From an uncultured Methanosarcinales archaeon (GTDB lineage Archaea; Nanobdellota; Nanobdellia; Woesearchaeales; JACJVV01), in contig CAZOOV010000001.1 in the NCBI GenBank assembly GCA_964581515.1, positions 180,823 through 244,822 on the forward strand: 64,000 nt of DNA. Reading direction: 5' to 3'. Positions within the stretch are counted from its first letter, which is position 1. Every line of letters starts with the position of its first letter. Made by a program: the position numbers and the translations under genes. The notes under the pieces were generated by a model, which saw only the letters and a list, made by a program, of their open reading frames with translations, had not been told where the DNA came from and searched no databases. Shown here piece by piece: positions 2,243 to 31,683 of the stretch.

Positions 2243-3181
2243 TTATGGCTTATACTTAGCTAATTCAGCCTTTAAAATCCTTAAGTTCTCTTCACCAGGA
2301 CATTCCTTTGCTGCAAAATCCCTATGCCCATAAACATTATCGTCAGAAATCTTATATCTCCTTTGAAGAGAAGTTACAAGAGCAATTACATTTGTTTTCT
2401 GCGCATCTGTAAGTGTTACAACACTACCGTCAGGATATCCTGTTTTTGGGTCGGTTGGCAATGTACCTACCATCTCTATACTTAGAGTACCTTCATTATG
2501 TCCTTTGCAGTGATACGCAATATTTGTTTCTGGAACTATCTGAATAATAGCTCCATCAATAGTACTATTCTTACCTTCACCAGTGCCATTCTCAACTATA
2601 TAATGTGCACTAAGAGATTTTTTTGCTGGAAGTTCATGATTGTGAAATGAGTTTTCTGCACTCTTGCCTTCTGACTGCGTTATATGAAGGAAGATCTGAT
2701 CAATGCCTACATTTCTGCCACCTACATGATAACCGGAAGTAAGGTTTGTTCTAGTAGGTCCAGCATAAGCTGGTGCATCTAATAATCCTGATTCTTTTGG
2801 TAAAGTCGCTTCAAGACCGATAGGTTCTGTATCATCTATCATATGTTCATCTGCAAATGCCATCAGCATCTCAACACGTAAATCCATATCGTGATTAGCT
2901 GGTGTTTTAGGTGTTTGATATGATCCAATAGAAGGTTCTTGACTTGCATCTGGTTTTGATTTAAACAGATTAGCTATACTATGTTTGCTTTGAAGATTTC
3001 CTGCAACACCAAGACCAATAACTCCTGCAAGCGCTAATAATGGAACTGCATAAGTCTTCATGTATGAGGCTACATTACCTGGCATTCTCTTAAGAGCATC
3101 AAAATAAGTGATGTCTCTAGCCATTATAGCATCAAAATCAGATGTATCAAATTCTTCTGGATTAGATTGTTTTTTAGTCAT
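2243..3181 (-). CDS. Membrane-anchored N-acetylmuramoyl-L-alanine amidase (Amidase_2/AmpD-like)
   Basis: IFLHIT, SAHYIV, IIQIVPETNIAYHC, SIEMVG, VYGHRD and KECPG give the His/His/Cys zinc ligands; hydrophobic segment AVPLLALAGVIGLGVAG near the N-terminus. Confidence 0.9.
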   Translation of the reverse strand: MTKKQSNPEEFDTSDFDAIMARDITYFDALKRMPGNVASYMKTYAVPLLALAGVIGLGVAGNLQSKHSIANLFKSKPDASQEPSIGSYQTPKTPANHDMDLRVEMLMAFADEHMIDDTEPIGLEATLPKESGLLDAPAYAGPTRTNLTSGYHVGGRNVGIDQIFLHITQSEGKSAENSFHNHELPAKKSLSAHYIVENGTGEGKNSTIDGAIIQIVPETNIAYHCKGHNEGTLSIEMVGTLPTDPKTGYPDGSVVTLTDAQKTNVIALVTSLQRRYKISDDNVYGHRDFAAKECPGEENLRILKAELAKYKP

Positions 3182-4984: not shown

Positions 4985-5521
4985 TTAATATCCTCCTACT
5001 CCAATTACCACAATACCTTTTTCTTGAGCATAATCCAATAATGGTTTTGCTGGTTCTTTTGCTATAATACCATTCACAGTAACTCTTCTTGACAAATCAT
5101 CTACCATAGATGCATGATTTACTTCTTCCAAGCATACAGCTATATTATGTGGCCTTAATCCATTTGTATTTGTCATTACTGTTGCATTATTCGGGAGATC
5201 TTGGTCCCGGAAATACTGGTTTAGCCTTTCTACCAAAGTATCAGGGTGAAGATATACCATTGGAGCTGATGGAAGAGCATGACAAGCATGAAAGCCTGAA
5301 ATACTCCTTCTACTGCTACTTCTTCCTGAAGAACCAGGGGCTGATCCAAAACCTACTGATGAATGTGAAAATGGATCTTTTTGTGGAGCTTGTTCTTCAT
5401 CTTTTATGTTATAAGCCATCACAGCTAATTCATTATGTACTGCTCCACCTATATTTACTGGAACATATCTTGAATGTTCTAAACCTAGTGCTTTTGATAA
5501 TTTCATTGAGTCAACTTTCAT
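4985..5521 (-). CDS. Hypothetical protein
   Basis: 178 aa ORF, GAGG RBS upstream, convergent with cysS. Confidence 0.65.
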   Translation of the reverse strand: MKVDSMKLSKALGLEHSRYVPVNIGGAVHNELAVMAYNIKDEEQAPQKDPFSHSSVGFGSAPGSSGRSSSRRSISGFHACHALPSAPMVYLHPDTLVERLNQYFRDQDLPNNATVMTNTNGLRPHNIAVCLEEVNHASMVDDLSRRVTVNGIIAKEPAKPLLDYAQEKGIVVIGVGGY

Positions 5522-5753
5522 TTCGATAACCTCGTTTAGTGTTTTTTTAGTTGTAAAAGAAAAAAACAGTTGGTATTAAAGTCTAGAGAAATATAGCTGA
5601 CGCCAATGGCCATGAGTTGATTTGAAAATACTAAGATCTAGAAAGATTGAATAGCTACTGCCAGGCATAATCACATCTGTTTGTCATAGTTTTTGAGAAT
5701 AGGTTGAATTATATAAATGTTTCTGAACATTTGAGTAAAGATTTTTAAACATA

Positions 5754-7451
5754 ATGATATTATATTCGACTATGAATTATTTTGAAGAACTCATTGAGTG
5801 GATAAAAGAGAATAAGCCTGATAAGGATAAACTCGCTAAACAGAAGGTCAAGCTATGCAGAAAACATGGCAAAAAGGAAATTCCTACTGATATTGAGATA
5901 TATTTACAGGCCACCATATATGATGCTAAGAAAATAAGAAGATATGTAGAAACAAAACCAACAAGAACTGGAAGTGGTGTTGCAGTTGTTGCTGTAATGA
6001 CAAAGCCTGCAAAGTGCCCTCATGGCAAATGCATATTTTGCCCTGGTGGAGTAGAAAGCGAATTTGGTGATGTTCCTCAAAGCTATACAGGCAAAGAGCC
6101 TTCCACTATGAGAGGGATGAGAAATGATTATGATCCATACAGAATCGTATTTAATCGGTTAGAACAATATATAGTAATAGGACAGAACCCTGAAAAAGTA
6201 GACCAAATAATAATGGGTGGAACTTTTTGCTCAATGCCTAAAAAATATCAAGAAAATTTTATTCATCATTCATTCAAGGCATATAATGATTTTTCTGATA
6301 TGTTTTACATTAAAGGTAAGTTAGATCTTAAGAAGTTCAAAGAATTCTTCGAACTGCCAGGGAAAGTCAATGATAAGAAACGTAGCATAAGAATAAAGAA
6401 GAAAGTGTTAGCTCTTAAGAAGAAAAATAAAAAAAGCCTTTTTGAAGAGCAGAAAAGAAATGAGAAAAGTGCTATCCGGTGCATAGGAATCACTGTTGAG
6501 ACTAGACCAGATTGCGGTCTTGTTGAGGATGGTATCAGATTACTTAGTCTTGGAGTCACTAGAATAGAACTAGGAGTACAGACAGTATATGATGATGTAC
6601 TAAAGAAAGTCAATAGAGGTCATAATGTCAAAGATTCTAAAAGAAGCATTGCCGAACTCCGTGATTTAGGATTTAAACTAAATTTTCATATAATGCCAGG
6701 ACTTCCTGGAGTTAGCAAGAAAAAAGATATAGAAAATTTCAAGACTTTCTTCAGAAACAGCTGGTTCAAGCCAGATATGCTGAAGATATATCCTTGCATG
6801 GTTATGCCAGGGACTGAGCTGTATAAATGGTATAAGAAAGGTAAATTTAAACCACTCATTACAAAAGAAGCAGCTGAAATAATTGTTGAAGGTTTCAAAT
6901 ATATCCCTGAATGGTGCAGGGTTATGAGAGTGCAGAGAGATATTCCAACATATGTGACTTCTGCAGGCGTTGACAGGACAAACTTAAGACAATATGTGAA
7001 TGAACTTGCCAGAAAGAAGAAAGTTAAGATAAATGATATCAGGGCAAGAGAGATCAGAAAGGAGAAAGTAAAAGAAAAAGGAAAGATAAAAGTAATTGAA
7101 TATATTGCCAGTAACAGTAAAGAATACTTTATTAGTTGTGAAGCTGATGGAAAATTACTTGGTTTTTTGAGATTAAGGCATGTTGTCAGGTCATTGCACA
7201 GTGCCATAACACTCGATAGCGGAGTAATTAGGGAATTACATGTCTATGGAAGTGCTGTAGGTATAGGAAAAGAAGGAGATATTCAGCATAAAGGCGTTGG
7301 TAAAAGACTTATGAAAAAAGCTGAAGAAATATGTCTGAAAAAGAAAAAAGATAAGATGGTTGTCATTTCTGGAGTAGGTGCAAGAGATTATTACAGAAAA
7401 TTAGGATATAAAAAACAAGGACCTTATATGGTCAAGAAGTTGAGACTATAG
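5754..7451 (+). CDS. elp3: Elp3 radical SAM/GNAT tRNA U34 acetyltransferase
   Basis: CPHGKCIFCPGG, QSYTGKEP, ETRPD, RVQRDIP, RELHVYG, QHKGVG, ISGVGARDYYRKLGY. Confidence 0.96.
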   Translation: MILYSTMNYFEELIEWIKENKPDKDKLAKQKVKLCRKHGKKEIPTDIEIYLQATIYDAKKIRRYVETKPTRTGSGVAVVAVMTKPAKCPHGKCIFCPGGVESEFGDVPQSYTGKEPSTMRGMRNDYDPYRIVFNRLEQYIVIGQNPEKVDQIIMGGTFCSMPKKYQENFIHHSFKAYNDFSDMFYIKGKLDLKKFKEFFELPGKVNDKKRSIRIKKKVLALKKKNKKSLFEEQKRNEKSAIRCIGITVETRPDCGLVEDGIRLLSLGVTRIELGVQTVYDDVLKKVNRGHNVKDSKRSIAELRDLGFKLNFHIMPGLPGVSKKKDIENFKTFFRNSWFKPDMLKIYPCMVMPGTELYKWYKKGKFKPLITKEAAEIIVEGFKYIPEWCRVMRVQRDIPTYVTSAGVDRTNLRQYVNELARKKKVKINDIRAREIRKEKVKEKGKIKVIEYIASNSKEYFISCEADGKLLGFLRLRHVVRSLHSAITLDSGVIRELHVYGSAVGIGKEGDIQHKGVGKRLMKKAEEICLKKKKDKMVVISGVGARDYYRKLGYKKQGPYMVKKLRL

Positions 7452-10400
7452 AACCATAATCATTCCTGACATCATCAGGGGATCTAAAAGTAATAGGTAT
7501 ACTATACACCTGAGGTCTTATGGATAAATCTTTTTCTAGGAAGTAAAATATATCATTATCTACTACTACAGTAGTTTCAACAGGTATGTCAATCTGTTTA
7601 TTTGTCTGAAAGTTCATCTCAATAACATTATTGTAAGAATATCTGTTCAAGACAAGCTTTCTTTGATTATCTGTAATATATGTAAAGAAATTAAGTTCCA
7701 ATTGACCAGTCTTATCATTGTCAATGTATGTAACCCTATCGTTCAGATCTGTATAGGACGCAGGTAGTGCACTTTGATAATATAATTGCCTCTGCTGTTG
7801 AAGGCCAATCCTTAGGGAGAGGTCTCTTTTTGCTTCAAGATTTAACTTTTGCAGAAGATTTATTTCTTGTGTTGTATTTACTGTGTTATTGTATATGATA
7901 TTAAAGTTTGAAGTGTATTCATCAACATCTTGTTTTATCATCATAACATAATTTGGATCAAAAACTTCTCTTGCATTGCCCTCATATGTTGCTTCTGTAC
8001 TGCTGAGTTTCCCTATTGATAATAAACCAATAATATCTTCTCTTACATATATACTATTTTCTCCAGACATATTTGCACAATTTTTGAAACAGATATGTTT
8101 ATTTTCCATATTACCATAACTGCTTACTGCAACTTCATATTCCTGAGGAAGATATCTGTATAAGCAATCCTTTTGTCTTAATGTTACATTTGCGACATAA
8201 GTTCCCTTTATGCTATTTAATCTCCCTATACCAGGGTAAGTTGTAGTAGATTGCAAAGTAGAATGATTTATGAAATACATCTCCCAGCTACTACCTCTTA
8301 CATAATTCTCTCTTGTATTGTCTGGCAATAATGGACCAAAATAAATCTCTTTTACAGACCATGAATTGTTGTCTGGTGATGAAGCATTGATGTATGTTAT
8401 GTTACCAGATGGACTGTAATGAATTGTTATTGCATCTGCTGAGTCTGAACGCATGTAAATTTCTACATCGTCATTATGAAGGATTGCTCTATGATTAGGT
8501 GATGGTCTTAACTCAATTGCTGTTATTTCATCTACAGATGAGTCTAAGTTTGCTATCCATGAACCTTTTATTACATTGTGTGCTAAAATGGAATTATTAC
8601 CTACTTCTATCAAATTCCAAAACATTGTTGCGTGCTCTGCTACTATCAAATCAGGAGTCTGGACTAAGTCTCCACCATGATTTATTATTATTCTCTTAGG
8701 ATTTGAAATTGTTATATCTCCATATGCCCTATATGAATCATCAATTGAAGAGATTATGAAACCTGAATAGGTCTGGAAGTCTGCATCGTAGGTTTGTAAG
8801 ATGAGTGCCATCAAGTCTGATGTTATCTGGTCTGATATTTCGTTAAAGTTTGCTGTGTTTCCTTGTGATACCTCTTCTTGCAGTAAAGTTAAATATGTTA
8901 GGCCTAATATCTGTAATGCTTCTGATGATAGATTATCTGGAATAGGTATTGATACTGAAATGTTTAATGGTTGAAGTGCTGTGTTTGCTATTGAGAGTAG
9001 AGATTGATCATGATCCCTGTTAATCCTTTCTATGAATAAATTCCCTAATGTTTCTAAATCAGTTGTAGATGTTGACGTTGGCAGTGATGGTGGTGGTATC
9101 ATAGTATTATCTAATTGATCTAGAATAGTTGCTGTGTTTGGGATTGTACTTAGGAATTCTCTTGCAGGGATTAAGTTTGGATTGTTGTTTGCATCTAATA
9201 AGCTGTGTTGGATGAAGTCATAGTCTATTGTGTAGTCTGGATCGTCTGTTGGGTAGCCTGTTAGAGCGTTTGGTGTGTATGTTTGGCCTTGCATTTCTAT
9301 GATTGCAGGTGATGAATCTGGAAGGCGAACTTGTGTTTTGTCTTCATCAAAGTTTATTTGTGCAACTGGCTGTTCTGTATCTGGTTGTACAATTGTGGGA
9401 GAAGAAGATGGTAATTCTGAAACAAGAATATCATCAGGTGGAAGATATATCATTACAGAAGTATCATCATTTATAACTTCAGTTGTTGAAGCACCATCAA
9501 GTGACTGATCTACATGGACATCTGTGAATGCATTAACACCTACACTTATTTCTTGATCATCTCCTTCATGATCAAAAACTACTTCTGCAGGTGAGTCCAT
9601 AGGTCCTGAAGCCATATCTTCTGCAGTAGCAGTGGGATCAGATGTTGAAGTAAGACCTACATTATCTATAGTTTCTTCTATTTTATCAAGAGAATTAGAA
9701 GGTGGTAATTCTTCTGAAATAGTTTCTTCATCACCATTATCTTCTTCAGAGATATCTTTTAATATTTCTTCATAAGGTTTTAAATTGGTCTCAGGAAGTG
9801 CAGGTTCATAAGTTGATCTAAATTCATGAATATCGGATTGTTCTATATTAGATAAACCAAAACATTCTGGCAAGCAAACTTCAGGCCAAACATAGTTAGG
9901 ACCATCATTATCCTCTACTAAAGTGACATCTCCATTCTTAATTGCTTCATCTATCTTTTGAAAATCCTTACCAGTCATTGCTTCTAAATATATAATTGAC
10001 TTTGATGGATCTGTTTTAAAATTTGAATAAAAATATTTATTTAATGTTCCTTGAAGTAATTCATCATCTCCGTCATCAATAATTAATTGACGTAATCCTT
10101 CCTCATTTGTTGTTACAAACTTACTAACACAAGTACCACAATTAATTGCAGTGTCTTGATTGTTCATTAATTCTTTTTGTTGGTTAGCATCTAATTTATC
10201 ATATAACTGATTCTGTGATTTTATGATATTCTGCTGTTGTGTTCCTTCTAGATCATACCATACACTTTGTAACTCAGTCTGATCAATTGTATTTAATAAA
10301 GCAGGGTTATTCAGATTATCTGAATTTGATAAGAATGAATATAGATTATCACCCTTGCATTCTGTAAGAGATTCACCATCACAAGTAGCATTAATTAAAG

Positions 10401-10452
10401 GTAATACTATTATAATAATTAAAAGAATGCTAATATTATTATTAATTTTCAT
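7432..10452 (-). CDS. Large secreted surface protein, paralogue B (1006 aa)
   Basis: Signal peptide ending ...LPLINA; acidic, Ser/Thr/Pro-rich middle; C-terminal ~400 aa aligns by eye with 11606..14491. Confidence 0.85.
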   Translation of the reverse strand: MKINNNISILLIIIIVLPLINATCDGESLTECKGDNLYSFLSNSDNLNNPALLNTIDQTELQSVWYDLEGTQQQNIIKSQNQLYDKLDANQQKELMNNQDTAINCGTCVSKFVTTNEEGLRQLIIDDGDDELLQGTLNKYFYSNFKTDPSKSIIYLEAMTGKDFQKIDEAIKNGDVTLVEDNDGPNYVWPEVCLPECFGLSNIEQSDIHEFRSTYEPALPETNLKPYEEILKDISEEDNGDEETISEELPPSNSLDKIEETIDNVGLTSTSDPTATAEDMASGPMDSPAEVVFDHEGDDQEISVGVNAFTDVHVDQSLDGASTTEVINDDTSVMIYLPPDDILVSELPSSSPTIVQPDTEQPVAQINFDEDKTQVRLPDSSPAIIEMQGQTYTPNALTGYPTDDPDYTIDYDFIQHSLLDANNNPNLIPAREFLSTIPNTATILDQLDNTMIPPPSLPTSTSTTDLETLGNLFIERINRDHDQSLLSIANTALQPLNISVSIPIPDNLSSEALQILGLTYLTLLQEEVSQGNTANFNEISDQITSDLMALILQTYDADFQTYSGFIISSIDDSYRAYGDITISNPKRIIINHGGDLVQTPDLIVAEHATMFWNLIEVGNNSILAHNVIKGSWIANLDSSVDEITAIELRPSPNHRAILHNDDVEIYMRSDSADAITIHYSPSGNITYINASSPDNNSWSVKEIYFGPLLPDNTRENYVRGSSWEMYFINHSTLQSTTTYPGIGRLNSIKGTYVANVTLRQKDCLYRYLPQEYEVAVSSYGNMENKHICFKNCANMSGENSIYVREDIIGLLSIGKLSSTEATYEGNAREVFDPNYVMMIKQDVDEYTSNFNIIYNNTVNTTQEINLLQKLNLEAKRDLSLRIGLQQQRQLYYQSALPASYTDLNDRVTYIDNDKTGQLELNFFTYITDNQRKLVLNRYSYNNVIEMNFQTNKQIDIPVETTVVVDNDIFYFLEKDLSIRPQVYSIPITFRSPDDVRNDYGSIVSTS

Positions 10453-10470
10453 TTTGTTATTAATATAGTC

Positions 10471-11604
10471 CTATTTAGGTATTGCAAGATATACATTAGG
10501 TGATACATCGTAAATATATTTGATTGTTTTACTGCCTTCTTTCAATAAAACAAAGGCTTTTCCAGATTGATCCCCTATTATACCTTGAGCCATCTTATTA
10601 CTCAAATCTACACTCCCAATCATTTTTACATAAGGATTAATTTCTGTAACTAAATCATATAATTCTTTTTTCTTCGCTTCTGATAAATAATCTAAACTTG
10701 GAAAAAAGGGCAATAAAACACTTCTTAAGTTTTGACCTGGTTTAATTTTAACTATTCTTGCATTTTTTGGTGTCTTTGAGATGGATTCCTTAGAATGATT
10801 AATATCTAATTTGCCTGCTAAAGCTAAATCAAGATAAAAATCTTTTAGTGAACCTTTGTATTTTGAATCTAAAGAAGTTGCATCAATAAATCTTGCTATC
10901 TCTTGATAATCATTAAACTCATTTACGTTTTTATTAAAGTCAGAAGGCCAAAGTCGCCCCCTTTTTGCGAATACTCTTTTTGCAATTGAGTCTATTGTCC
11001 TTTGATAAGCATCTGATGTTGTATCTATCCCAAGATTATTTTTACGTATGTATTCATCAACAGCTTTTCTATATGCATCTTCTTGTAATCCTGATTCTAA
11101 TTTTATCTTAGCAGGTAGTAATTTTATTCTAGATGTAGGATATTGATTAGCCTGTTCTATTCCTTGTCTTTGTGGTTCTGGTGTTTGTTGATTTGTCTGT
11201 GCTATCGCTGGTTGAGCTGACGCAAGCATAGCTCCTGCTGCTGCTACTCGCATTGGTTGTGTTGCTCTTCTTGTGAATCTTCTCCATAAGGAAGGCCTTA
11301 GATCATCAAGATGATCTATATAATGAATAGCAGAAACTTCATGGTTCAGTTCAGAGGCCAATCTTGATTGCTCTGTTTGACTTGGATCGTTTTTTGCAAG
11401 CATTGCTTCAAGCATTTCTTTTATCCTCTTAACCTCAGCCTTAGCATGCACAACCTTGTCATCTCTTGAATGTAGCTTTGAGAGCTCCTTTAATACATTC
11501 TCAACTATAGACTTTCTCTGTTCTATATCCTTTCTAAGCCATTTCCATTGTGCAGGCAAATCACCTAATTTGTTAAGCTTAGATAGTTCTCTCTTGATTC
11601 CCAT
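10471..11604 (-). CDS. Protein with internal signal-like segment and C-terminal LysM-like motif
   Basis: RRFTRRATQPMRVAAAGAMLASAQPAIA at ~aa 108-135; C-terminus VKIKPGQNLRSV...VTEINP...SPNVYLAIPK. Confidence 0.7.
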   Translation of the reverse strand: MGIKRELSKLNKLGDLPAQWKWLRKDIEQRKSIVENVLKELSKLHSRDDKVVHAKAEVKRIKEMLEAMLAKNDPSQTEQSRLASELNHEVSAIHYIDHLDDLRPSLWRRFTRRATQPMRVAAAGAMLASAQPAIAQTNQQTPEPQRQGIEQANQYPTSRIKLLPAKIKLESGLQEDAYRKAVDEYIRKNNLGIDTTSDAYQRTIDSIAKRVFAKRGRLWPSDFNKNVNEFNDYQEIARFIDATSLDSKYKGSLKDFYLDLALAGKLDINHSKESISKTPKNARIVKIKPGQNLRSVLLPFFPSLDYLSEAKKKELYDLVTEINPYVKMIGSVDLSNKMAQGIIGDQSGKAFVLLKEGSKTIKYIYDVSPNVYLAIPK

Positions 11605-11605
11605 C

Positions 11606-14491
11606 TTAAGTAGCTATCAATTCACCATAATCCTGCTTGACATCATCAGGAGGTTTGAAATAGATCCAGTTGTCATAAACATTAGGCTGCAACGAGAGAT
11701 CATCCTCAAGGAAATAAGTTATGTCATTATCAACAACAACATTTGTTATGACAGGAATGTCTACAGGCATAGTCTCAATCGAATTGAGTTCAATCATATT
11801 ATTGTATGAGAATCTGTTCAAAACAAGTTTCCTCTTGCCATCCATGACATAAGTAAAAAGATTCAGATCAATATAACCTTCATCATTGTCTATGTAACTG
11901 ACTTTCTCATTCAAATCTGTAAATGAAGCAGGAGCTGCATTCTGATAATATAACTCACTCTGAAGTTCCAATGATTCACGCACTGAAAGATTCCTTTTTG
12001 ATTCTCTGTTTAATCTGAAAAGAAGATCATCCTCAGCAGATCCTGTTATTGAATTTGCTACAAGTGTGTTGAAGTTTGATGTGAACTCAAGATTTGAATC
12101 CTTAGTCAATAATAATGAATTTAGATCAAATACCTCTCTTGAATTGCCTTCATAATCAATCACTATGCTTCCCATAGTCCCAATTGAGATAACACCTTGA
12201 TTATCATCTCTAACATAGACAGAATTATCTATATTGATATTACTGCAATTAATGAAACAAATTATCTTCTCTTCAAAAGTACCATATCTACTTGATTTAA
12301 CTTCGTATTTTGCAGGAAGATATCTGAAGAGTGCATCTGAAGACTTTAAAGTTACATTGGAAACATACAAACTTTTGTTAACATCAAAATCACCTATAGT
12401 AAATCCAGTTATAGGATTTGTGAAGATCCCTTGTGTTTCTTTTGATGCAGCAACCATCTGTTGTAACTCCACTAAATCTATTGTAAATTGCTCTCCTCTA
12501 ACATAGTATGTTCTTTCTGTATTAGTTAGCTCTGGACCAAAGTAAACTTCAATTTCTGAACCATCACTACCGATTGCAGTTATCTTATTCATGTTTCCAC
12601 TTGAATCATAATCTACAGTTACTGATGCTGAGCCACTGCCTGATGATTGATCAAACCTGATGTCAATATCTGCATCATCATTCTGGATAATTGCTCTTCC
12701 TGAAGCTGGAGGCATTACTGTCATACTTTCAATAGTTCCAGAGATAGGGTCTCTAGTGACAATAAAACTACCACTTACAACTTCATTGTCAATTGTTAAA
12801 GTTGCATCTTCTGCTGTAATTACAGATGGTGTTACTGAAACATCTCCATTCCTATTTTGTATGTTTACATTTCCATCTTCAATGTTTTGTCTTCCTGATG
12901 CGTCGTAGCCTGACGTCCCCCATTCAAAAGAAGAATATCCAGATGTACTTGCGCCAGATGAAGTACACATACCTAAATAAGCATTCCAATATTGTCCACT
13001 AGGACATCCATCTTCAGGCATACCTGTAGTATCTGCTTCTTCAATATCTCCTGAATCTATCAAGGCCTGGATCTCCTCTTCAGTCAATGTTGAAATATCA
13101 CCTACACCTTCACCAGTCACAACATATGGATCTCCAGTTCCTGAAGGGATTATATCCCCCACAGAAGATTCTTCTTCAGGTTCTTCATCAGAACTGACTA
13201 TTACTTCACTGTATCCTTGTGTAAATACTACTTCTGCACCACCATTTTCGTCAAATATAAGAATTCCATCAGCATCAAGAGCAATATCTCCTCCAGTATT
13301 AATTATCTCTACTGTTGAAGCTGCAGCTGGTGGATTCTCTGCTAAAGAACCAGTCTGTCCAAGGAACTGACCTGTATTTGGATCATACCATTCAACTCTT
13401 CCAGTCTCTTCATTGATAGTATAAGCACGACCATCATCAAAAGTACTAAGTCCAGAAGTATCTGAAATACTTGGAAGAACATCATCTCTCCAATCCTCTT
13501 CACCCACCATTGGAGCATCATCATCAGAGCCTAATGAAAAAGGATCATCAGTAGGATATAATGAGAAAGCAAAATCACCACCAAATTGCGTATCAACAAG
13601 AGTAATTGCACCAGCATCTGAACCACCCAATTGAATTGGACTGCCATCTGCACTTGTAATCGTAAAATCGTGAGAAAGTTCTCCTGATATTGATGTCTCG
13701 TCACCGATTGTAATTTCTATTACAATTGAATCGTCATCTGCTGCTTCACTTGTCTCAAAGATATCAACTGTCGCTCCATTATATTCTGTTCCAAGCGAAG
13801 TCAAATCAAGTGCATTTCCATTTACAGTTAATGTATCAGTATCTGGGTCGTATACTACATCTTGTGCAGAATCAAAATCAGATTCAGGCATAACAAAATT
13901 GATTGAGCCTTCTGCTCTTGAGTCAAGAAATTCTGCTGCATAATCACTATCTAATAATCTTCCACTATCACTAAAATAATCTTGGAAAGATTCTTCTAAA
14001 TCAGGGTCATTAAAAAGAGCGTCTCCACTACCTACATTAGCACCGATATAAGATTCCATCGCACGTGTTAAACCAGGTTCACTATCCCAATCGACACTGC
14101 TAATAAATTCTTCTGCCTGAGAATCTGAAAGCTTATTTATTGCATTTGCATCTGTAGATGGATGTCTTAACAAAGCAACCTGATCCTCATAAGGAATATT
14201 ATCCCATGAAGCTTGAAGATCTGTATCTGAAGCAGTATTGACAAAATTTATCTTTTCTGAAGGACCCATATAACCCCATGCTTCTTGGAACTGCTGTTCA
14301 CTCAAAGCTGAAGGATTGCTCTGTGCCAGACCCATCTTATCTTCTTTTGACATTTCATCCCAATCATCTACTCCTTCGCCGCCACCTGTAGATACACTTT
14401 GTCCAGCTGCAGGAGCAGGTGGTGCATATACACTAGCAACTAACAAAATCATTATTGTTAATGTTATTAGATTGATTATATTAGTTCTCAT
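11606..14491 (-). CDS. Large secreted surface protein, paralogue A (961 aa)
   Basis: Signal peptide ending ...VASVYA; very acidic beta-rich body; shared C-terminal region with 7432..10452. Confidence 0.85.
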   Translation of the reverse strand: MRTNIINLITLTIMILLVASVYAPPAPAAGQSVSTGGGEGVDDWDEMSKEDKMGLAQSNPSALSEQQFQEAWGYMGPSEKINFVNTASDTDLQASWDNIPYEDQVALLRHPSTDANAINKLSDSQAEEFISSVDWDSEPGLTRAMESYIGANVGSGDALFNDPDLEESFQDYFSDSGRLLDSDYAAEFLDSRAEGSINFVMPESDFDSAQDVVYDPDTDTLTVNGNALDLTSLGTEYNGATVDIFETSEAADDDSIVIEITIGDETSISGELSHDFTITSADGSPIQLGGSDAGAITLVDTQFGGDFAFSLYPTDDPFSLGSDDDAPMVGEEDWRDDVLPSISDTSGLSTFDDGRAYTINEETGRVEWYDPNTGQFLGQTGSLAENPPAAASTVEIINTGGDIALDADGILIFDENGGAEVVFTQGYSEVIVSSDEEPEEESSVGDIIPSGTGDPYVVTGEGVGDISTLTEEEIQALIDSGDIEEADTTGMPEDGCPSGQYWNAYLGMCTSSGASTSGYSSFEWGTSGYDASGRQNIEDGNVNIQNRNGDVSVTPSVITAEDATLTIDNEVVSGSFIVTRDPISGTIESMTVMPPASGRAIIQNDDADIDIRFDQSSGSGSASVTVDYDSSGNMNKITAIGSDGSEIEVYFGPELTNTERTYYVRGEQFTIDLVELQQMVAASKETQGIFTNPITGFTIGDFDVNKSLYVSNVTLKSSDALFRYLPAKYEVKSSRYGTFEEKIICFINCSNINIDNSVYVRDDNQGVISIGTMGSIVIDYEGNSREVFDLNSLLLTKDSNLEFTSNFNTLVANSITGSAEDDLLFRLNRESKRNLSVRESLELQSELYYQNAAPASFTDLNEKVSYIDNDEGYIDLNLFTYVMDGKRKLVLNRFSYNNMIELNSIETMPVDIPVITNVVVDNDITYFLEDDLSLQPNVYDNWIYFKPPDDVKQDYGELIAT

Positions 14492-15471
14492 GGTGACACC
14501 GTCAGCTTGAATTTCTTAGATACCTTATATGTGTCGTCATCAAGCGTTATAGTTATATTATACTGGCCAATATCTAGTGCATCCGGGACATAATTAATCA
14601 ATCCAGTATCCTCATCTATGTCAAATAATACAGTATTGTCATAAAACTTACAATGATGTGATGCATTTATCTGCATAAGGTAAGGAGTACCTACAAAAAC
14701 TGTAATGTTTGGTAAGTTTCCTTCAAAATCCAGTATTGATGGCAGATAGTGATCATCATAGATTGCAAAAGAGAACTTCAAAGGATTGGTTCTTAGTCTT
14801 GCTGATGTGTTTATCATATCAATTACTTTGATATTTCCAGAATAAGGATTAATTATCATCTCAAAATCAGTATCATAGAGCTTATCAAGCAACATAAGAT
14901 TAGGATAATCAAGAAGATCATTAACCACTATATTTCTCAATTCCACCATCCTTCCATAAGGTATAAAATGCCTTGTCTGATAAGAATTATACCTATAAGT
15001 TACATCATCTGCAACTGTCTCAAGTGCATAAATCAATTCTGCATCAACTGACTCTGGAAAGATTGTTACTTTTGCTTCAGGAGAACCTGTTTTCATTATA
15101 TGTATAGTTGAATCATCAAGACATGAATCAATATTTTCTTCTATATACCTTTCAATCTCACTCTCCATAAATGATATACTTGGTGATGTATTTTGATTTG
15201 AGTAAATCGAATACGCAAAAGTACGCTTAGTTGTAGTAAGATTAGGATTATAAGTATAAATAAAACCTCCTTGCGCTGCTAAAATCTCAATTGAATCAAC
15301 TACATTGAATTTCATGCACTCTTTTACATAATATGGCACTGGCTGACTTGTATCTTTCAAAAACCAACGCATAGCGCCTGAATCGCTTGACGCCAGAAGA
15401 AATACAATAAAGACAATAACAAAGATTATGCCTAAAAGAACGAATACTGATACCTGAGACTTATTTTTCAT
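14488..15471 (-). CDS. Class III (pilin-like) signal peptide protein with C-terminal Ig/cadherin-like domain
   Basis: Preferred start MKNKSQ|VSVFVLLGIIFVIV (KxSQ + hydrophobic); C-terminus DIDEDTGLINYVP...GQYNITITLDD. Confidence 0.7.
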   Translation of the reverse strand: MKNKSQVSVFVLLGIIFVIVFIVFLLASSDSGAMRWFLKDTSQPVPYYVKECMKFNVVDSIEILAAQGGFIYTYNPNLTTTKRTFAYSIYSNQNTSPSISFMESEIERYIEENIDSCLDDSTIHIMKTGSPEAKVTIFPESVDAELIYALETVADDVTYRYNSYQTRHFIPYGRMVELRNIVVNDLLDYPNLMLLDKLYDTDFEMIINPYSGNIKVIDMINTSARLRTNPLKFSFAIYDDHYLPSILDFEGNLPNITVFVGTPYLMQINASHHCKFYDNTVLFDIDEDTGLINYVPDALDIGQYNITITLDDDTYKVSKKFKLTVSP

Positions 15472-15613
15472 TTTTAAGATCCTCCTCAATGAGATGTTCA
15501 ATATAATTAGAAACCTTGATCATACGGCTAGCTAGCTTTTTCTTCAGTTTTTCTATCAACTTATCGTCAATAGTTGCTGAGATGCGTGTTTTTGTTCCTG
15601 ATCCTTTACGCAT
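15461..15613 (-). CDS. Ribbon-helix-helix (CopG-like) transcription regulator
   Basis: MRKGSGTKTRISATIDDKLIEKLKKK...VSNYIEHLIEEDL; true start is the internal Met of track ORF 15461..15838. Confidence 0.75.
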   Translation of the reverse strand: MRKGSGTKTRISATIDDKLIEKLKKKLASRMIKVSNYIEHLIEEDLKNEK

Positions 15614-15803
15614 TATGGGTGATTTTAGAGTGCGGCGTTTATAAATATTACTAATATTACTCATAAGATTAATATTTTTAATAATATAAGTAATATTAGT
15701 ATTACGAATGTGAAAGATAAGAAAATGCAAGTATATTATAGTGCCTAATTTTGAAAAAAAGAAAACAAAATTATTTGTAAAAGAAGAAAACAAAATTATT
15801 TGT

Positions 15804-15921
15804 AAAAAGTCTGCTTGCACGGCGCAACGAGAAATCAAAGATTTCTGGTGTTTATTGCATAAACAACCATAATTATCCTTTTTAGGATAATTATCGCCTC
15901 ATTAGGCAAAGCTGACTTTTT
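15804..15921. repeat. Multi-hairpin palindromic element, copy 1 (REP/MITE-like)
   Basis: AAAAAGTCTGCTTGC...GCAAAGCTGACTTTTT terminal inverted repeats enclosing three hairpins; near-identical to 22685..22764. Confidence 0.85.
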
Positions 15922-24134: not shown

Positions 24135-26441
24135 TTAAATCATTTCAGCGCCAATAGATTTGTTTAATATGCTCATTGCAATAGTATTAAATATGAGTAT
24201 TACAATTGCTGTTAAGAGCGCGTAAAGAATAGTTGAGCGAAGAAGATTTCTTCCAACTAAATTCTCTTCAGTTAACTTATCATCACCATTAGATATTCCT
24301 GCAATTGTCTTTGAAATAATAAAAACTACTTGTACTATGTATAAACCAACTACTATCTGAAAAAAATAAGTAGGGATTCCATCACCAAACATACTTGTCA
24401 AGCCTTCCATACCACTTGCTTGCTCAGAACCCACCTCTATATTCTGAATAGAACTTGAAAGTGTACCAATAATATTAGTTATCATAGCAGTTATACCAAC
24501 AACAATACCAGAGATTACAGGAGCTAAGAATTTTATCAAAGAGTTCATAGAAGAGATTACTTCTCCAAGAAGATCCTTAAGCCTTTCTTCAACAGCATGC
24601 ATCTCTTTAACATATCTTGCAATATTACTCATCGCTTTAGCTGCAATCAATGGACCTTTCTTGATAGATTCTGTCAAAACCTTCATAGTAGAAAGTATTA
24701 ATGAAGAAGGAAAATATTGGATTGCTCCAATCTTCTCATCGAATATAGCCTGTTCAGGCGACATCCCTAGACGTCTGATATTTTGATCAATAATACCAAA
24801 GAATTTTCCTGATTTTGAATCCTGCATGACCTCCACTACTTTACTAAATGACATTTCCAAGGGGATTCCATCTCCCAACCTATTCCCAAGTTGGAATACT
24901 GCTGATCCAAACTCGTCTTCTAATTGTCTTGTCTGTTCACGTATTATTACAATATCTTTTGTTTTAAGAGTATAATATATGCCAACACCAACTCCAAAAG
25001 ACAGTATCAAACAAATACCCAAGAGAGTTGCAATAACACCATAAGGACCTTTATAGATTGGATTTCCATCTTCATCTGCTCCACCTTCACGATAATCAAG
25101 TACAGACATACCTGGTTCTCCTAAATCTACATTTCTCCCAATATAAATATCATTTCCATCTCCTAAAGCAAGATTTAAAATTAAAGGGGATACACCAAGT
25201 AAAAAAAGCGGGATTGCGACAAGTAATGCAGCAAATAAAGGAGTAAATTTGATTCCAAAATGTTTCTTATGTTTCTTCCTTTCCTCAATTACAAGAGGAT
25301 TATCCTCTGATATATCATTCCCACCATAACCTCCTGGCCGCTCTGATAAGATCTTTTTCCCAACAAAATAAACAGAGATAGGTATGACTACATTATATAA
25401 TATCGATAAATGATACCATCGAACACTTTCCATAAAACTTACTACGAGAGGAAGGATTACAAGACCAAGTATCGGAAGGATTACCCCAAGCATATGAAGC
25501 GTACTGATAGGAGATTGAATATCATGAGAATAATGGAGCATCTTCTCATATGTCTCTGAAAGAATCACATCAAGAGCCTTATCAAGTAGAGCTATACGAT
25601 TCTCTTCTTTTCCCTCATATAATGAGGATTCAATAAGATTAATACCTTCTAAGAATTCACTGTTTGTCTTTCTCCATTTTTCCATATAAACATCTAATGA
25701 TTCCTTTATAGTACCATATTTCTGGGATTCAACATCCCATAATACCTTCTTAAGTTCTACAGCAAGAGGACCAGAAAGATGATCACCTGCAAACTCAATT
25801 GCTTTCTCAAGATTTGAGTTCTGACGCATATATGTTACAATATAAAATACACAAATGACAATCTCTTTACTACTTTTCAACCGCCATATGCTAGCAAATA
25901 TGGCAGGAAGTTTTGTCAATGGAATCATAATACCAATTGCTGCTAATAAAAAGAATGAGATAAAGAAAAGATCACCATTCAAAAGAAATATAGATGTAAG
26001 AAGACCAACAACCATAAATATAATTGGGCCAATTATAGCAAAAGCAAAAGTATCTTCAGGTGTAATATTCATATGACAAGTATCAAGCGCTGCCTGTATC
26101 TCTGGCTTCATCTTCTCTCCTGGATTTATTTTTGCAATACTACCTGAAAATTGACATGCTTTCTCATATAAAGAATGCATTGCAGGCTTGTTTTCCTTCA
26201 GAAATTGCCTAAATTCAGGACTAGAGATAAACTGTTCATCAGAATCCATAAATTCTTCTGCTGTCTTCTTTTGTTCTATTAACTTGCCTTTCTTATCTTT
26301 CTTGCCTTTCTTGTCTTTCTTCTTTATTTTATCACTTATTTTCTTTTTCTCAGATATAATATCTTGCTCAATAGCGTTAGTACTACCTGCATCATATTTA
26401 CTCATTGCTTTTCTTATCTCTTCAGGTGATATTTTGTCCAT
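24135..26441 (-). CDS. Type IV pilus/Tad inner-membrane platform protein (two T2SSF-like halves)
   Basis: Multi-TM; NLEKAIEFAGDHLSGPLAVELKK and QLGNRLGDGIPLE halves; directly downstream of the ATPase. Confidence 0.85.
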   Translation of the reverse strand: MDKISPEEIRKAMSKYDAGSTNAIEQDIISEKKKISDKIKKKDKKGKKDKKGKLIEQKKTAEEFMDSDEQFISSPEFRQFLKENKPAMHSLYEKACQFSGSIAKINPGEKMKPEIQAALDTCHMNITPEDTFAFAIIGPIIFMVVGLLTSIFLLNGDLFFISFFLLAAIGIMIPLTKLPAIFASIWRLKSSKEIVICVFYIVTYMRQNSNLEKAIEFAGDHLSGPLAVELKKVLWDVESQKYGTIKESLDVYMEKWRKTNSEFLEGINLIESSLYEGKEENRIALLDKALDVILSETYEKMLHYSHDIQSPISTLHMLGVILPILGLVILPLVVSFMESVRWYHLSILYNVVIPISVYFVGKKILSERPGGYGGNDISEDNPLVIEERKKHKKHFGIKFTPLFAALLVAIPLFLLGVSPLILNLALGDGNDIYIGRNVDLGEPGMSVLDYREGGADEDGNPIYKGPYGVIATLLGICLILSFGVGVGIYYTLKTKDIVIIREQTRQLEDEFGSAVFQLGNRLGDGIPLEMSFSKVVEVMQDSKSGKFFGIIDQNIRRLGMSPEQAIFDEKIGAIQYFPSSLILSTMKVLTESIKKGPLIAAKAMSNIARYVKEMHAVEERLKDLLGEVISSMNSLIKFLAPVISGIVVGITAMITNIIGTLSSSIQNIEVGSEQASGMEGLTSMFGDGIPTYFFQIVVGLYIVQVVFIISKTIAGISNGDDKLTEENLVGRNLLRSTILYALLTAIVILIFNTIAMSILNKSIGAEMI

Positions 26442-26455
26442 TTTTATTTATTTTC

Positions 26456-28747
26456 TTATTTATTTATTCTTGAAAGATTATTCTTCTTAATCGTTTTCTT
26501 AAGCCATTCATTCCATTCATAGAAAATTCTTTTAGTATCAAGGGTACCTACTTCTTCTTTGACAGAATCACTGATTTTATGGAAAAAATCATTACATAAA
26601 ACTGTAAACTTAGCCTCTAACAAATCAGGATTCTTTACTTTTTCAGCCATATCTACTTGTGTCTGTTTAATTTTAGCTCTAAGTTCAATACTTTCCCAAA
26701 TAGCGTCCCAATTATTTGCATATTCTTTAATATTTGATGCTATTGTCTTTAATATCTCTGATTCACCATTCTTTAATTCTGCACTTACCTTCAACTCATC
26801 AGTCTTAGGGTCATATTTCATAAGATCAGTAAAGCCATGTTCAATCAATGGATCATTCACCCAATTCTTTCCCATCTCTGTTATCTGTGTGACTCTCCTA
26901 AACTTATGCAAGCCATCTGCACTTCTGATTGGATTTGCAACAATAATAACATCTGTAGCTTTGAAAGAAGTACTTGGAACACCTATATCATTGACAACAC
27001 GGTCATAAATACCATATGGACTATCACCATGAATAGTTCCTGCGACAGTATTTGCTGCTGCACCAACACGCATAGCTTCATACAAGGCTTTTGCCTCTTC
27101 ACTTCTTACTTCTCCTACAATCAAAGCTGAATCTCCTAACCTTAAAGTTGAACGAATACCATCTGACGCTGTCATCTCTGTAGTGTTCTTTGTCAAAGAT
27201 GATGCTACTTGAAGCGGCTGGATATTGAATCCTAATTTTCTCAAGTGAGGAGTAGGAAGTTCTAATGTATCTTCAATAGTAATAATACGATACTTCCTCA
27301 TTATATCAACAAGAACTGCAGAAAGCAAAGAAGATTTACCTGAACTTCTTGTTCCTGCTATCAACATAGTCCTTGTTCCGTCAATCAGAAAGGAAATAAG
27401 ACCTGCTGCAAATGAATTAATCATTTTTGCTTTTATGAAAAGTGGCAAAGTCCATGGTTTATCCCTATGACGCCTAAAAGAGAATGCTAGTCCTGTAGGA
27501 TCAAGTGGTCTAGTAACTGCCGATACACGAGTTGACGCTCCAGGTAACTCTAATTCTGTATCAAGGATGGGATTTGCTTCATCTAAAGGACGTCCTGACA
27601 TAAGACGTAGTTTTGTTGCCCAAGATTCTACCTCCCTTAATGTAGGGATTATGTTTGTTTTACAATCATCATAATCTTGATGAACGATAAACATAGGAAT
27701 AATTCCAGGAGGTGAGTTAATACTGATATCCTGAATTCTTTCATCAGAAAGAAGAACTTCTATCAATCCAAAACCGACAGTATATCTTACAAGAATTCTT
27801 GTAAGTTTTGCTACTTCTTTCTCAGTCATGGTCATATTCCTGTATGTTGCAAGCTCTTCTATGAGGTCATGACTGATATTGTAGAATACTTCTCTCATTC
27901 TTTCTGGATTTACAAACTCAGATTTTGTAGGTTTGTGTTCTGCCATGACTTGTCTGGCAATGTCAAGTATTTCATATTGTTCTTCATCCAGTTTAAATTC
28001 AGGAGGAAGAATATGGTAAAGATATTGTACAGTCTCAGGAACCTTGAAGACAGTAATCTCTATATCATCATCAACTGTGTAAGAATCTATCTCTTCACCA
28101 TCTAAAGGATAATCTGCCATAAGTTTAGTAAACATAAAGTCTGGTTTTATTGTTGGTGAGAAAATCCTTTGATATAAGTCTCTATTTCCTGGCTTAAAAC
28201 CTGAAAGAAAAGGCTGCACTATCACTATAAGTTTTGTCTTATCCATAAGAGATATAATATACTTCAAAAGCATGAAATATTTCTTATCATGTGGCGCTTG
28301 TGCATTTTGTTCATTATCTGCTGATTCTCTCCTATATATCCTCTTTAACATAACATATGCACTTACAGGATCTTCTTTAATCTTTCTGAATACAATATTT
28401 TGCAGTTCAATATACCTTTGACTGTAAAAAGTATTAAAACTAGCATCTTGAGAAGAAAGATTTGAGATCTGAAACAAATCCTTTTGCTTTAGAAGTTTCT
28501 TATATATCTGTGCTATCTCAACCAAAAGTTTAGTCTGTGCATAATCGTATTCATAATCTCTTTTTTGATAGAAAACAATCTTTGTCACATCACCTACATC
28601 AATAATAGCGTCCACCACTAGTGACATAGCCTCTTCATTATCTTCAACTGAAGGAATCTCACCATAAGTCTCATAATCAATCCTAAGAATTACATCTTCT
28701 GCTTCTCTGATTATTTCATATTTTTTCTTTTTTTCGAAGAGTGGCAT
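26456..28747 (-). CDS. Type II/IV secretion (CpaF/TadA/VirB11-like) ATPase
   Basis: AGTRSSGKSS, ITIEDTLEL, LIVGEVRSEEA, GTIHGDS. Confidence 0.93.
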   Translation of the reverse strand: MPLFEKKKKYEIIREAEDVILRIDYETYGEIPSVEDNEEAMSLVVDAIIDVGDVTKIVFYQKRDYEYDYAQTKLLVEIAQIYKKLLKQKDLFQISNLSSQDASFNTFYSQRYIELQNIVFRKIKEDPVSAYVMLKRIYRRESADNEQNAQAPHDKKYFMLLKYIISLMDKTKLIVIVQPFLSGFKPGNRDLYQRIFSPTIKPDFMFTKLMADYPLDGEEIDSYTVDDDIEITVFKVPETVQYLYHILPPEFKLDEEQYEILDIARQVMAEHKPTKSEFVNPERMREVFYNISHDLIEELATYRNMTMTEKEVAKLTRILVRYTVGFGLIEVLLSDERIQDISINSPPGIIPMFIVHQDYDDCKTNIIPTLREVESWATKLRLMSGRPLDEANPILDTELELPGASTRVSAVTRPLDPTGLAFSFRRHRDKPWTLPLFIKAKMINSFAAGLISFLIDGTRTMLIAGTRSSGKSSLLSAVLVDIMRKYRIITIEDTLELPTPHLRKLGFNIQPLQVASSLTKNTTEMTASDGIRSTLRLGDSALIVGEVRSEEAKALYEAMRVGAAANTVAGTIHGDSPYGIYDRVVNDIGVPSTSFKATDVIIVANPIRSADGLHKFRRVTQITEMGKNWVNDPLIEHGFTDLMKYDPKTDELKVSAELKNGESEILKTIASNIKEYANNWDAIWESIELRAKIKQTQVDMAEKVKNPDLLEAKFTVLCNDFFHKISDSVKEEVGTLDTKRIFYEWNEWLKKTIKKNNLSRINK

Positions 28748-30392: not shown

Positions 30393-30992
30393 TTAGCTTC
30401 TGGTCATGAAAAGAACTGTAAATGTAGCAATAAGACCGATTAATGCAAAACCCAAGATTGTAGGATGAAATAATGTCTTTGTCAAATTACTTTGATAATC
30501 ACTTTTAGGTATTGCCCCAGGTGGAAGATCATTAATAACTTCTCCTTCAGGAGTAGTATAGGTACCATCTAAATTCTGAGAATATCCTGGTTGTTCTTCA
30601 AGCAAATCTTGACCAAAAACATTTCCTAAACCCACTGCAACAATAACAATTGCAATAAATATTAAAATCCAAGAGATCCCTCTATATTCACTCATAACAC
30701 TCATTATTTGAGCGTCACTAACACCCATTGATTTAAATCCTATCAAAACAAAGATTATAAAGAAGAATAACACCATAAACCAAGGGGTCATGAATGAAAG
30801 CATACCAGATACTTGCGGACTAATAAGAACTAAGACAGAAGCACATAACGCTATAAAAACATTAACAAATGTGTTCTTTCCAAGTGCATGAGTATATTCA
30901 AGTATAGCAAAAAGGAGTAAGAGAACAAGTAGAGCCGGCATAAACCTGCTCAAACCTTCAACCAAGACTATACCCGATAAGAGATCTGCCAT
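30393..30992 (-). CDS. Multi-pass membrane protein, paralogue 3
   Basis: PALLVLLLLFAILEYTHALG motif. Confidence 0.8.
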   Translation of the reverse strand: MADLLSGIVLVEGLSRFMPALLVLLLLFAILEYTHALGKNTFVNVFIALCASVLVLISPQVSGMLSFMTPWFMVLFFFIIFVLIGFKSMGVSDAQIMSVMSEYRGISWILIFIAIVIVAVGLGNVFGQDLLEEQPGYSQNLDGTYTTPEGEVINDLPPGAIPKSDYQSNLTKTLFHPTILGFALIGLIATFTVLFMTRS

Positions 30993-31053
30993 TTTTCATT
31001 AATTGTTTATGGAGAAATAAATAAAAAATAAAAACCTCCTAAGAGATTTTTAA

Positions 31054-31074
31054 TCTTGCTTTAATAAAGCAAGA
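31054..31074 (-). terminator. Hairpin followed by T-rich tract
   Basis: TCTTGCTTT-AAT-AAAGCAAGA just after the stop of 31084..31683. Confidence 0.4.
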
Positions 31075-31083
31075 AATAAAAAT

Positions 31084-31683
31084 TTATTTTCCTCCACCAA
31101 ACATCTTTCCTATGTCTTCTGTTACTCTGGTAAGGACATTGCTTTTCTTCTCTGTATCATCTTTAGTGATGAACCAAATCAAGACTCCGAATACAAGCAC
31201 TATTATAACAAATGCTGCGATGTCTGGATGCTTATTGATATTTAACCAATCCAACCACCAAGGCACTTCATGCCTGAATCCTGGCCATCCTGTTGATCTT
31301 CCAAAGATGTATAAGATTATTAACAAGGAGATTATTGCAATCCAGCCAGATATGCTTGTACCAAGCCATCTAACTTCTCCGCCTAATATCCCTATTAAGA
31401 GTAAGAGCATAACAACACCGACCAAAACAATCGATACTCCAGGTAATGCACTATTTATTACCGGCACTATGTCTGGTTGCATACCAAGGACATGTGGAAA
31501 TATAACTGCTAAGCCCATAACAAGTGCAATAACTGAGTTAAAATTCTTCTTGCCTTTTCCAAGGATTTCTGTCTTTTGCAAAATTGCAAAAACAATAACA
31601 TATATCAAAAAGAATGGTAATAGCACATCAGCTACTCCCCACTGTTCTAGTAACAATATAAAACCTTTAAAGTTCATGTTCAT
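31084..31683 (-). CDS. Multi-pass membrane protein, paralogue 2
   Basis: GVADVLLPFFLIYVIVFAILQKTEILG motif. Confidence 0.85.
   Translation of the reverse strand: MNMNFKGFILLLEQWGVADVLLPFFLIYVIVFAILQKTEILGKGKKNFNSVIALVMGLAVIFPHVLGMQPDIVPVINSALPGVSIVLVGVVMLLLLIGILGGEVRWLGTSISGWIAIISLLIILYIFGRSTGWPGFRHEVPWWLDWLNINKHPDIAAFVIIVLVFGVLIWFITKDDTEKKSNVLTRVTEDIGKMFGGGK

Follow-up and report, generated by a model that had tools for sequence, protein, structure and literature searches.

In bacteria, the type IV pilus (T4P) tip adhesin is PilY1/PilC with the minor pilins PilVWX, and in Sulfolobales a two-component S-layer is formed by an SlaA canopy and an SlaB stalk. Here we describe a five-gene operon of an uncultured Woesearchaeales archaeon that can be compared with both. 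It lies at 7432-15613 on the minus strand of a stretch of 64,000 nucleotides (nt), contig CAZOOV010000001.1 of assembly GCA_964581515.1, positions 180,823 to 244,822, hereafter the window, and it encodes two large secreted proteins (A and B), two smaller proteins (D and C) and a small ribbon-helix-helix (RHH)-like protein. An initial annotation of this DNA had read A and B as a constant anchoring or assembly domain displaying unrelated, swappable adhesin-like heads. Our comparisons indicate a revised picture, in which A and B are full-length paralogs, each with a signal peptide, a helical N-terminal domain (N-domain), a hypervariable spacer, a beta-rich C-terminal module (C-module) and a dedicated partner gene, and in which the lack of relationship is confined to the acidic low-complexity centre. 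The genes and the parts of their products are as follows, with lengths in amino acids (aa), isoelectric points (pI) and, where a structure was predicted with AlphaFold2 (AF2), its per-residue confidence (pLDDT).

15461-15613, minus strand: RHH-like gene, encoding a 50-aa basic protein, MRKGSGTKTRISATIDD...
14488-15471, minus strand: D, 327 aa, prepilin-like, with a class III signal and a conserved ectodomain of ~290 aa
15385-15471, minus strand: predicted class III signal peptide and hydrophobic (H-) domain of D, residues 1-29
11606-14491, minus strand: A, a 961-aa secreted acidic protein, pI 4.05, A-type member
13757-14374, minus strand: A N-domain, residues ~40-245, predicted all-helical, pLDDT ~90, conserved family-wide
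12911-13756, minus strand: A variable centre, residues 246-527, D/E/S/G-rich (D+E 21%, K+R ~1-2%), pLDDT ~30
11609-12910, minus strand: A C-module, residues 528-961, predicted beta-rich with two helical hairpins, pLDDT ~80-88
10471-11604, minus strand: C, a 377-aa basic protein, pI 9.6
11197-11289, minus strand: conserved segment of C, residues 106-136, LWRRFTRRATQPMRVAAAGAMLASAQPAIAQ; pattern of basic residues, Ala/Gly-rich hydrophobic stretch, AxA-Q
7432-10452, minus strand: B, a 1006-aa secreted acidic protein, pI 4.15, B-type member
9763-10380, minus strand: B N-domain, residues ~25-230, B-group version with Cys pairs including CGTC
8737-9762, minus strand: B variable centre, residues 231-572, 14-38% identical to the ortholog
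7435-8736, minus strand: B C-module, residues 573-1006, 50-78% identical to the ortholog

The coordinates of the five open reading frames (ORFs) confirm a co-oriented set, all on the minus strand, with tiny gaps or overlaps: RHH-like gene and D overlap by 11 nt, D and A by 4 nt (ATGA), A and C are separated by 1 nt and C and B by 18 nt, and B shares 20 nt with the convergent Elp3 gene. The start of D is the ATG at 15471, and its 327-aa product is identical to a database protein (P0028; proteins are numbered P and related loci L throughout). A five-gene operon of the same make-up, with 4-nt overlaps, is present in another species.

As with PilY1/PilC, a Sec-secreted protein of ~1000 aa is encoded here beside a pilin-like protein, a conserved beta-rich C-terminal domain of ~430-500 aa follows a more variable upstream part, and the genome encodes a T4P-type ATPase. 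The locus differs from PilY1/PilC systems in that it is archaeal with an EppA-type +1 Gln signal, has one pilin-like gene per cassette, pairs paralog B with a non-pilin, conserves the N-domain too and gives no Pfam or beta-propeller match. The large acidic anchorless exoprotein and the smaller, apparently membrane-tethered coiled-coil partner (the N-terminus of the 377-aa C) in one operon recall SlaA/SlaB; there is, however, no kinship in sequence or fold, the anchor topology is reversed (N-terminal and not C-terminal transmembrane segment), the centre is long and disordered, and N-glycosylation sequons are not enriched, A having 4 where 10 would be expected, all of them outside the N-domain and centre. 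In its Pro/Ser/Thr- or Asp/Glu-rich centre, variable in length and repeat and set between folded ends, the large protein resembles mucin-like and PT-linker stalked surface proteins, although no described family includes its end domains. As a general kind, secreted surface proteins on a stalk whose genes accompany a pilin-like gene are familiar; the families of the large protein, of D and of C appear to be undescribed, and none of the three has a Pfam entry.

By BLASTP, residues 528-961 of A align with 573-1005 of B at 44% identity and 61% positives (E=2e-101), corresponding to 11609-12910 and 7435-8736. The initial annotation had reported that the last ~400 aa of the two proteins align and had quoted four motif pairs; the alignment contains all four and the stretch is slightly longer, at 434 aa. 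The C-module is marked by the motifs CFxNC, YxGNxREVFDPN, LYYQNAxPASF and RKLVLNRxSYNN, and its conservation runs to 3-7 residues past an invariant Gly at the extreme C-terminus. Its invariant polar residues are E303, R360, S329 and D404, plus a CxxxC pair; the invariant positions are mostly aromatic, Gly or Pro, which suggests that they are structural. The last ~700 nt of the two coding sequences are only ~64% identical, which argues for old paralogs. This value, and an A/B identity that is no higher within a genome than across genomes, ruled out that the C-modules were recently duplicated or homogenised by gene conversion.

The N-termini had been described as unrelated, which holds in pairwise BLAST (best E=0.064) but not in profile comparison, by which homology extends over the ~200 aa that follow the signal peptides. 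With the signal peptides removed, hhalign aligned the A-group and B-group N-regions with 98.0% probability (E=1.5e-13, 135 columns), against 0.2% (E=0.3) for the reversed control, and leave-one-out hidden Markov models (HMMs) of each group scored the other window protein at 24 bits, compared with a maximum of 7 bits in 300 shuffles. All-against-all BLAST linked the N-regions of the members transitively, with that of P0008 bridging A (3e-15) and B (7e-5), and a CxxC motif and an 'NDPxL...F..YF' block are found in both N-groups. We take the weak pairwise match of the N-halves to reflect true homology. Profile comparison was the very check that the initial annotation had set for its claim of unrelated N-termini, and since they align by it over ~200 residues, 'swappable heads' is the wrong description.

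Variation is instead concentrated in the centre. The AF2 model of full-length A, built with 21 sequences, consists of a helical N-domain (40-245, pLDDT ~90), a low-confidence centre (250-520, ~30) and a beta-rich C-module (520-958, ~80-88). Against its ortholog in the operon of the other species (P0007), A has identities of 48-58% (N-domain), 8-32% (centre) and 36-64% (C-module), and two tandem paralogs at L011 are 62-88%, 26-44% and 76-100% identical in the same three parts, their centres consisting of different Pro/Ser/Thr repeats (PT/SP), of the SPSVGDSSPSPSAPS type in one and the PEPLPVPEPTPIPT type in the other. Between the end of the N-domain match and the C-module lie 114 to ~900 aa, or >1000 aa in cases where the N-domain is undetected; the intervening sequence is strongly acidic or PT-rich in most members. 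The last ~150 aa of the B centre form a helical pre-module region common only to the B-type proteins P0004, P0005 and P0006. A and B each have a single N-terminal hydrophobic segment, the Sec signal peptide, a pI of ~4.1 and no C-terminal transmembrane segment. The survey of relatives for varied N-termini that the initial annotation had proposed found the N-domain in 17 of 25 members and the centre as the varying part, and no adhesin, Ig or cadherin domain of Pfam was detected, which speaks against a constant anchor with adhesin-like heads.

Archaeal class III signals have a basic n-region and a cleavage motif preceding the H-domain, and the EppA-type prepilin peptidase requires Gln at position +1, as at the KGQV and RAQI sites of the EppA-type Epd pilins of M. 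maripaludis (Table 1 in PMC4371748). D has this layout, with a basic n-region, a [KR][GAS] cleavage motif before an H-domain of ~20 residues and +1 Gln: its N-terminus is MKNKS/QVSVF, where the slash marks the predicted cleavage site, followed by a 20-aa hydrophobic domain, and the signal as read is MKNKS/QVSVFVLLGIIFVIVFIVFLL. The motif [KR][SAG]Q[VILM][ST]x[FY] is invariant in all 19 D homologs (P0027-P0045; 325-352 aa, 48-85% identical), whose n-regions are 3-30 aa long, which bears out the class III (prepilin-type) signal read earlier from the single sequence. D is predicted to be processed like EppA-type prepilins, its motif matching the KGQV and RAQI sites. It shares with archaeal PibD/EppA-processed class III proteins the +1 Gln, the N-terminal H-domain of ~20 aa and Ser/Thr at +3, and is unlike them in having ~290 aa beyond the helix, Phe/Tyr and not Glu at +5, and no Pfam pilin domain. 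The 'Ig' label once given to D corresponds to a sub-threshold He_PIG match (E=0.028).

D lies directly upstream of an A-type gene, usually overlapping it, in 11 loci (the window, L002, L003, L007/L010 and L011-L017). The D+A cassette directly follows the valyl-tRNA synthetase (ValRS) gene in 10 of the 11, Elp3 is on its far side in eight, and it is usually preceded by a 51-65-aa RHH-like gene. The fixed site downstream of ValRS, and the lack of a called integrase in those loci for which genes were called, rule out that the cassette originated as a prophage or island. Attachment of A through the pilin-like D is plausible. About 11 kb from the operon, at 26456-28747 on the minus strand, lies a gene for a 763-aa ATPase of the T2SSE family (type IV pilus/secretion), which adjoins the gene of a 768-aa protein without a Pfam match (24135-28747 for the pair, minus strand). 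The T2SSE gene or the adjacent syntenic gene recurs in L010, L011, L014 and L016, where it is located upstream of the D cassette at a distance of a few kb, and the ATPase and its neighbour may be the machinery that handles D. Among the window ORFs scanned there was no peptidase A24 gene.

The partner of B is of another kind. C has an N-terminal coiled-coil-like region of ~105 aa, an internal signal-anchor-like segment and a C-terminal domain of ~240 aa. Residues 106-136 fall within its most conserved 50-residue block (54% identical to the ortholog), and their pattern of basic residues, an Ala/Gly-rich hydrophobic stretch and AxA-Q is present in all C-like proteins, at the extreme N-terminus in L019 and elsewhere after a coiled-coil-like extension of ~100-130 aa; we read the segment as signal-peptide-like or signal-anchor-like. 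C-like proteins are mutually homologous (BLAST E 2e-15 to 4e-4 in a set of seven sequences), and a C-like gene lies directly upstream of a B-type gene in six loci (the window, L007, L018, L019/L020, L004 and L005). Since D pairs with A-type and C with B-type proteins, the window and L007 join two modules, RHH-D-A and C-B; the other relatives have D with one A-type protein, apart from the tandem pair at L011. The N-domain subtype follows the partner type wherever both are known, whereas the phylogeny of the C-module core does not, which weakly suggests that the partner-specific surface is formed by the N-domain or by the initial ~170 aa of the C-module.

The family is small. An exhaustive HMM search of 1.84 billion representatives, needed because a word-indexed homolog search gave just 1-3 members, returned 25 matches, 23 of them true members and two repeat-protein false positives; in all 23 the C-module is at the C-terminus. 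Two scans of metagenome contigs and one of viral contigs revealed no relatives of the C-module or D, and a bacterial-type member had no tblastn match in plasmid and phage collections. The operon proteins are 62% (D), 40% (A), 40% (B) and 27% (C) identical to their orthologs, against 70-81% for flanking housekeeping proteins, and this faster divergence fits exposed surface proteins. One protein, P0001 (L001, 212-1744; 510 aa), consists of the C-module alone behind an 80-aa leader and lacks a signal peptide; an AT-rich intergenic region precedes the gene, which argues against a truncated gene call. P0010 (668 aa) has a leader motif in common with it, and the two appear to be cytoplasmic or differently exported versions of the module.

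The C+B pair extends beyond archaea. On L018, a contig with 49% G+C from the Logan assembly of SRR17267536, a C-like and a B-type gene (7914-11529) lie beside genes for an integrase, a DUF87 ATPase, SSB, RadC, ParE and an extracytoplasmic function (ECF) sigma factor, and the contig also encodes an Alginate_exp porin; it looks like a bacterial integrative element carrying C+B as cargo. L004 and L005, which are binned as Verrucomicrobia, carry Replic_Relax and a MazF-like gene. In a neighbour-joining tree with midpoint root and no support values, the B-type members of L018, L004 and L005 are placed towards the base, next to the root. These relatives on contigs resembling bacterial integrative elements hint at cross-domain transfer, and it is a reasonable hypothesis that the C+B module was transferred between domains. 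L005 also contains a 229-aa fragment of a B-type C-module (9623-10312) beside its complete B-type gene, and in the same neighbourhood a duplicated gene for a ~250-aa membrane protein (5303-6070 and 10319-11071); with its MazF-like and Replic_Relax genes, this region is rearrangement-prone.

Searches for known families were negative throughout. The five operon proteins or 21 family members gave nothing above threshold in Pfam, NCBIfam, PHROGs and PADLOC, and sequence searches of the PDB found nothing, whether the query was a single sequence or a profile (C-module, D, RHH-like protein). In Pfam, NCBIfam, PDB sequence and Foldseek searches alike, the shared domain stayed outside named S-layer or enzyme families, which upholds the initial annotation on this point. 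The predicted fold of the large protein has no recognisable neighbour in the libraries searched: in Foldseek, OspA single-layer sheets reached E ~1e-3 with a template modelling (TM) score <0.2, the MgtE N-domain had a probability of 0.98 but TM 0.30 and a root-mean-square deviation of 7 A, and phage tail-fibre matches had a probability <0.2. An AF2 model of the C-module with three sequences had pLDDT 46, and the Foldseek outcome from it is meaningless. Four identities for A/B were rejected. PilY1/PilC is contradicted by the lack of Neisseria_PilC in the 21 members and by Foldseek propeller matches with probability <=0.1 and TM <0.1. A known S-layer family found no Pfam, NCBIfam or PDB sequence match, the lone archaeal surface-layer structure in the Foldseek list (1l0q) having E=0.2 and probability 0.06. 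There is no Pfam Autotransporter match, and the AF2 C-module contains helical hairpins and gave no barrel match, which excludes a type V autotransporter. Rhs or polymorphic toxins do not fit a conserved C-terminus, a Foldseek Rhs probability of 0.03-0.07 and the lack of a Pfam match.

We tentatively propose, as a reading that may well be right but falls short of probable, that A and B are partner-tethered cell-surface or host-contact proteins. The operon would consist of two paralogous two-gene modules, D+A and C+B, under one small RHH-like regulator. D would be retained by its N-terminal hydrophobic helix in the membrane or in a T4P-like fibre, and C, carrying a signal-anchor or signal-peptide segment, would be the partner of B in the second module. 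A and B, without a membrane anchor of their own, would each be held at the surface by the translationally coupled partner, with the spacer as a flexible stalk, and the complex would most likely serve cell-envelope or cell-cell (host) contact in a marine Woesearchaeote of episymbiont type. The physical D-A and C-B binding, the surface retention and the contact function are what we infer from the sequences. A cell-wall amidase (Amidase_2), also encoded in the window, is consistent with a way of life in which bacterial cell walls play a part.

Several observations weigh against this proposal. Pfam searches of the 21 members detected no binding domain, be it adhesin, Ig, lectin or any other, and a Foldseek search of the full-length AF2 model of A against PDB and BFVD yielded no convincing neighbour. 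The hydrophobic segment of C is weak, below the Kyte-Doolittle (KD) cutoff, and ends in an AxA-Q site, so that C is perhaps released and not anchored. As B+C occur on bacterial-looking contigs, where contact of an archaeon with its host is impossible, a function shared by all relatives must be more general. The locus DNA is present in marine and seawater metagenomes (~12x in one run); in metatranscriptome runs of the same studies, 0.00 of the locus words were present.

It could be argued that A (and B) form the main envelope or an S-layer-type coat, with D or C next to the membrane as its stalk or anchor, as in SlaA/SlaB. A coat would suit the one D + A-type cassette per locus at a fixed, vertically inherited site in 11 loci, the size of the proteins (~800-1450 aa), their acidity and Sec secretion without an anchor, their fast, S-layer-like evolution and the confinement of the family to a narrow clade. 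A disordered or low-complexity centre of ~250-1000 aa would nevertheless be unusual in a lattice former, no S-layer entry of Pfam or NCBIfam matches, the sequon count of A shows no enrichment, relatives sit on bacterial mobile-element contigs, and an RHH regulator would suggest conditional over constitutive expression; we therefore regard a coat as unlikely. The cargo position of relatives beside an integrase on a bacterial element, together with the architecture of a small partner plus a large secreted protein, could also indicate secreted effectors (enzyme, toxin or lysin-like), in which the C-module would be catalytic or pore-forming and D and C would act as export, chaperone or immunity partners. 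The invariant E303, R360, S329, D404 and CxxxC pair and the cell-wall amidase of the genome are compatible with such a role. However, no enzyme or toxin family is matched by sequence or fold, most invariant positions look structural as aromatic, Gly or Pro residues, and polymorphic toxins vary at the C-terminus, which is the constant end here, making an effector improbable.

A constant C-module that anchors or assembles unrelated, swappable adhesin heads, as in the initial annotation, is very improbable. Although the C-module is always C-terminal and the best conserved part, and P0001 shows that it can stand alone without head or signal peptide, the homology of the N-domains largely refutes this arrangement for A versus B, and the N-domain recurs in independent members among the 17 of 25. 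The N-regions of P0006, P0014, P0017 and L013, which the N-domain HMMs missed, could pass for unrelated heads, but by eye they keep an NP/QQ helical repeat pattern; adhesin domains are absent and variation is located in the spacer.

Woesearchaeota are uncultured, and how DPANN archaea recognise and hold their hosts is largely unknown. The tethered surface proteins proposed here make the cassette a concrete candidate for a host-contact or envelope apparatus of one marine DPANN clade, because it is syntenic in all 11 related loci examined, fast-evolving, secreted and tied to a prepilin-type protein. A bolder hypothesis, to which we give a small chance, is that D+A and C+B represent an undescribed two-component surface apparatus with a new fold, in which D, as a prepilin-type adaptor, would attach a long acidic protein with its stalk to the cell or to a pilus-like fibre for host contact, and which would have travelled between DPANN archaea and mobile elements of bacteria. 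If true, it would be a lineage-defining host-interaction organelle of the marine Woesearchaeota clade.

The 50-aa RHH-like protein probably regulates the operon. It has a TRISxTID pattern and two amphipathic helices, compatible with RHH, and matches Pfam RHH_3 below threshold (E=0.061, 13.7 bits, cutoff 21.6); its profile reached only E>=0.76 in the PDB, with one RHH antitoxin at 1.8. Homologs of 51-65 aa, 62-80% identical where aligned, overlap the D gene in L007, L011, L012, L014, L015, L016 and L017. Upstream of the gene lies a candidate operator or promoter region of the operon:

15646-15704, no strand: imperfect inverted repeat of 27 nt, TAATATTAC/GT motifs, 85% complementary, 33-91 nt upstream of the RHH-like start

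Farther upstream of the operon there is a 25-nt tandem direct repeat (15748-15797, 88% identical) and, just downstream of ValRS, a perfect 11-bp hairpin (ATAATTATCCT/AGGATAATTAT, 15869-15894); in run X1, many related-genome contigs match the hairpin flanks and differ within (joints 15824 to 15879-15891).

The window has a G+C content of ~34% and encodes archaeal aIF5B, Nop5, Elp3, RFC and a class I aminoacyl-tRNA synthetase (partly from Pfam calls on orthologs), and the related loci are annotated as metagenome-assembled genomes of Candidatus Woesearchaeota. Metagenome DNA contigs over the locus represent one clonal population with zero variants inside the operon. The amidase gene of this archaeal genome lies at 2243-3181 (minus strand), and its 312-aa product matches the N-acetylmuramoyl-L-alanine amidase domain (Amidase_2) with E=1.9e-18; the protein would cleave peptidoglycan and hints at interaction with bacterial cell walls. 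Three successive, paralogous-looking ORFs for multi-pass membrane proteins of ~195-199 aa, none above the Pfam threshold, occupy 30393-32359 (minus strand). A tRNA gene at 38289-38422 (minus strand; Rfam 44 bits) was missed by ARAGORN and spans 134 nt against a model of 71 positions, a length that we attribute to an archaeal intron. Unrelated to the operon are two tandem SPFH/Band 7 genes and a gene for a DUF6384 protein, at 39007-41183 (minus strand) and 41486-43006 (plus strand).

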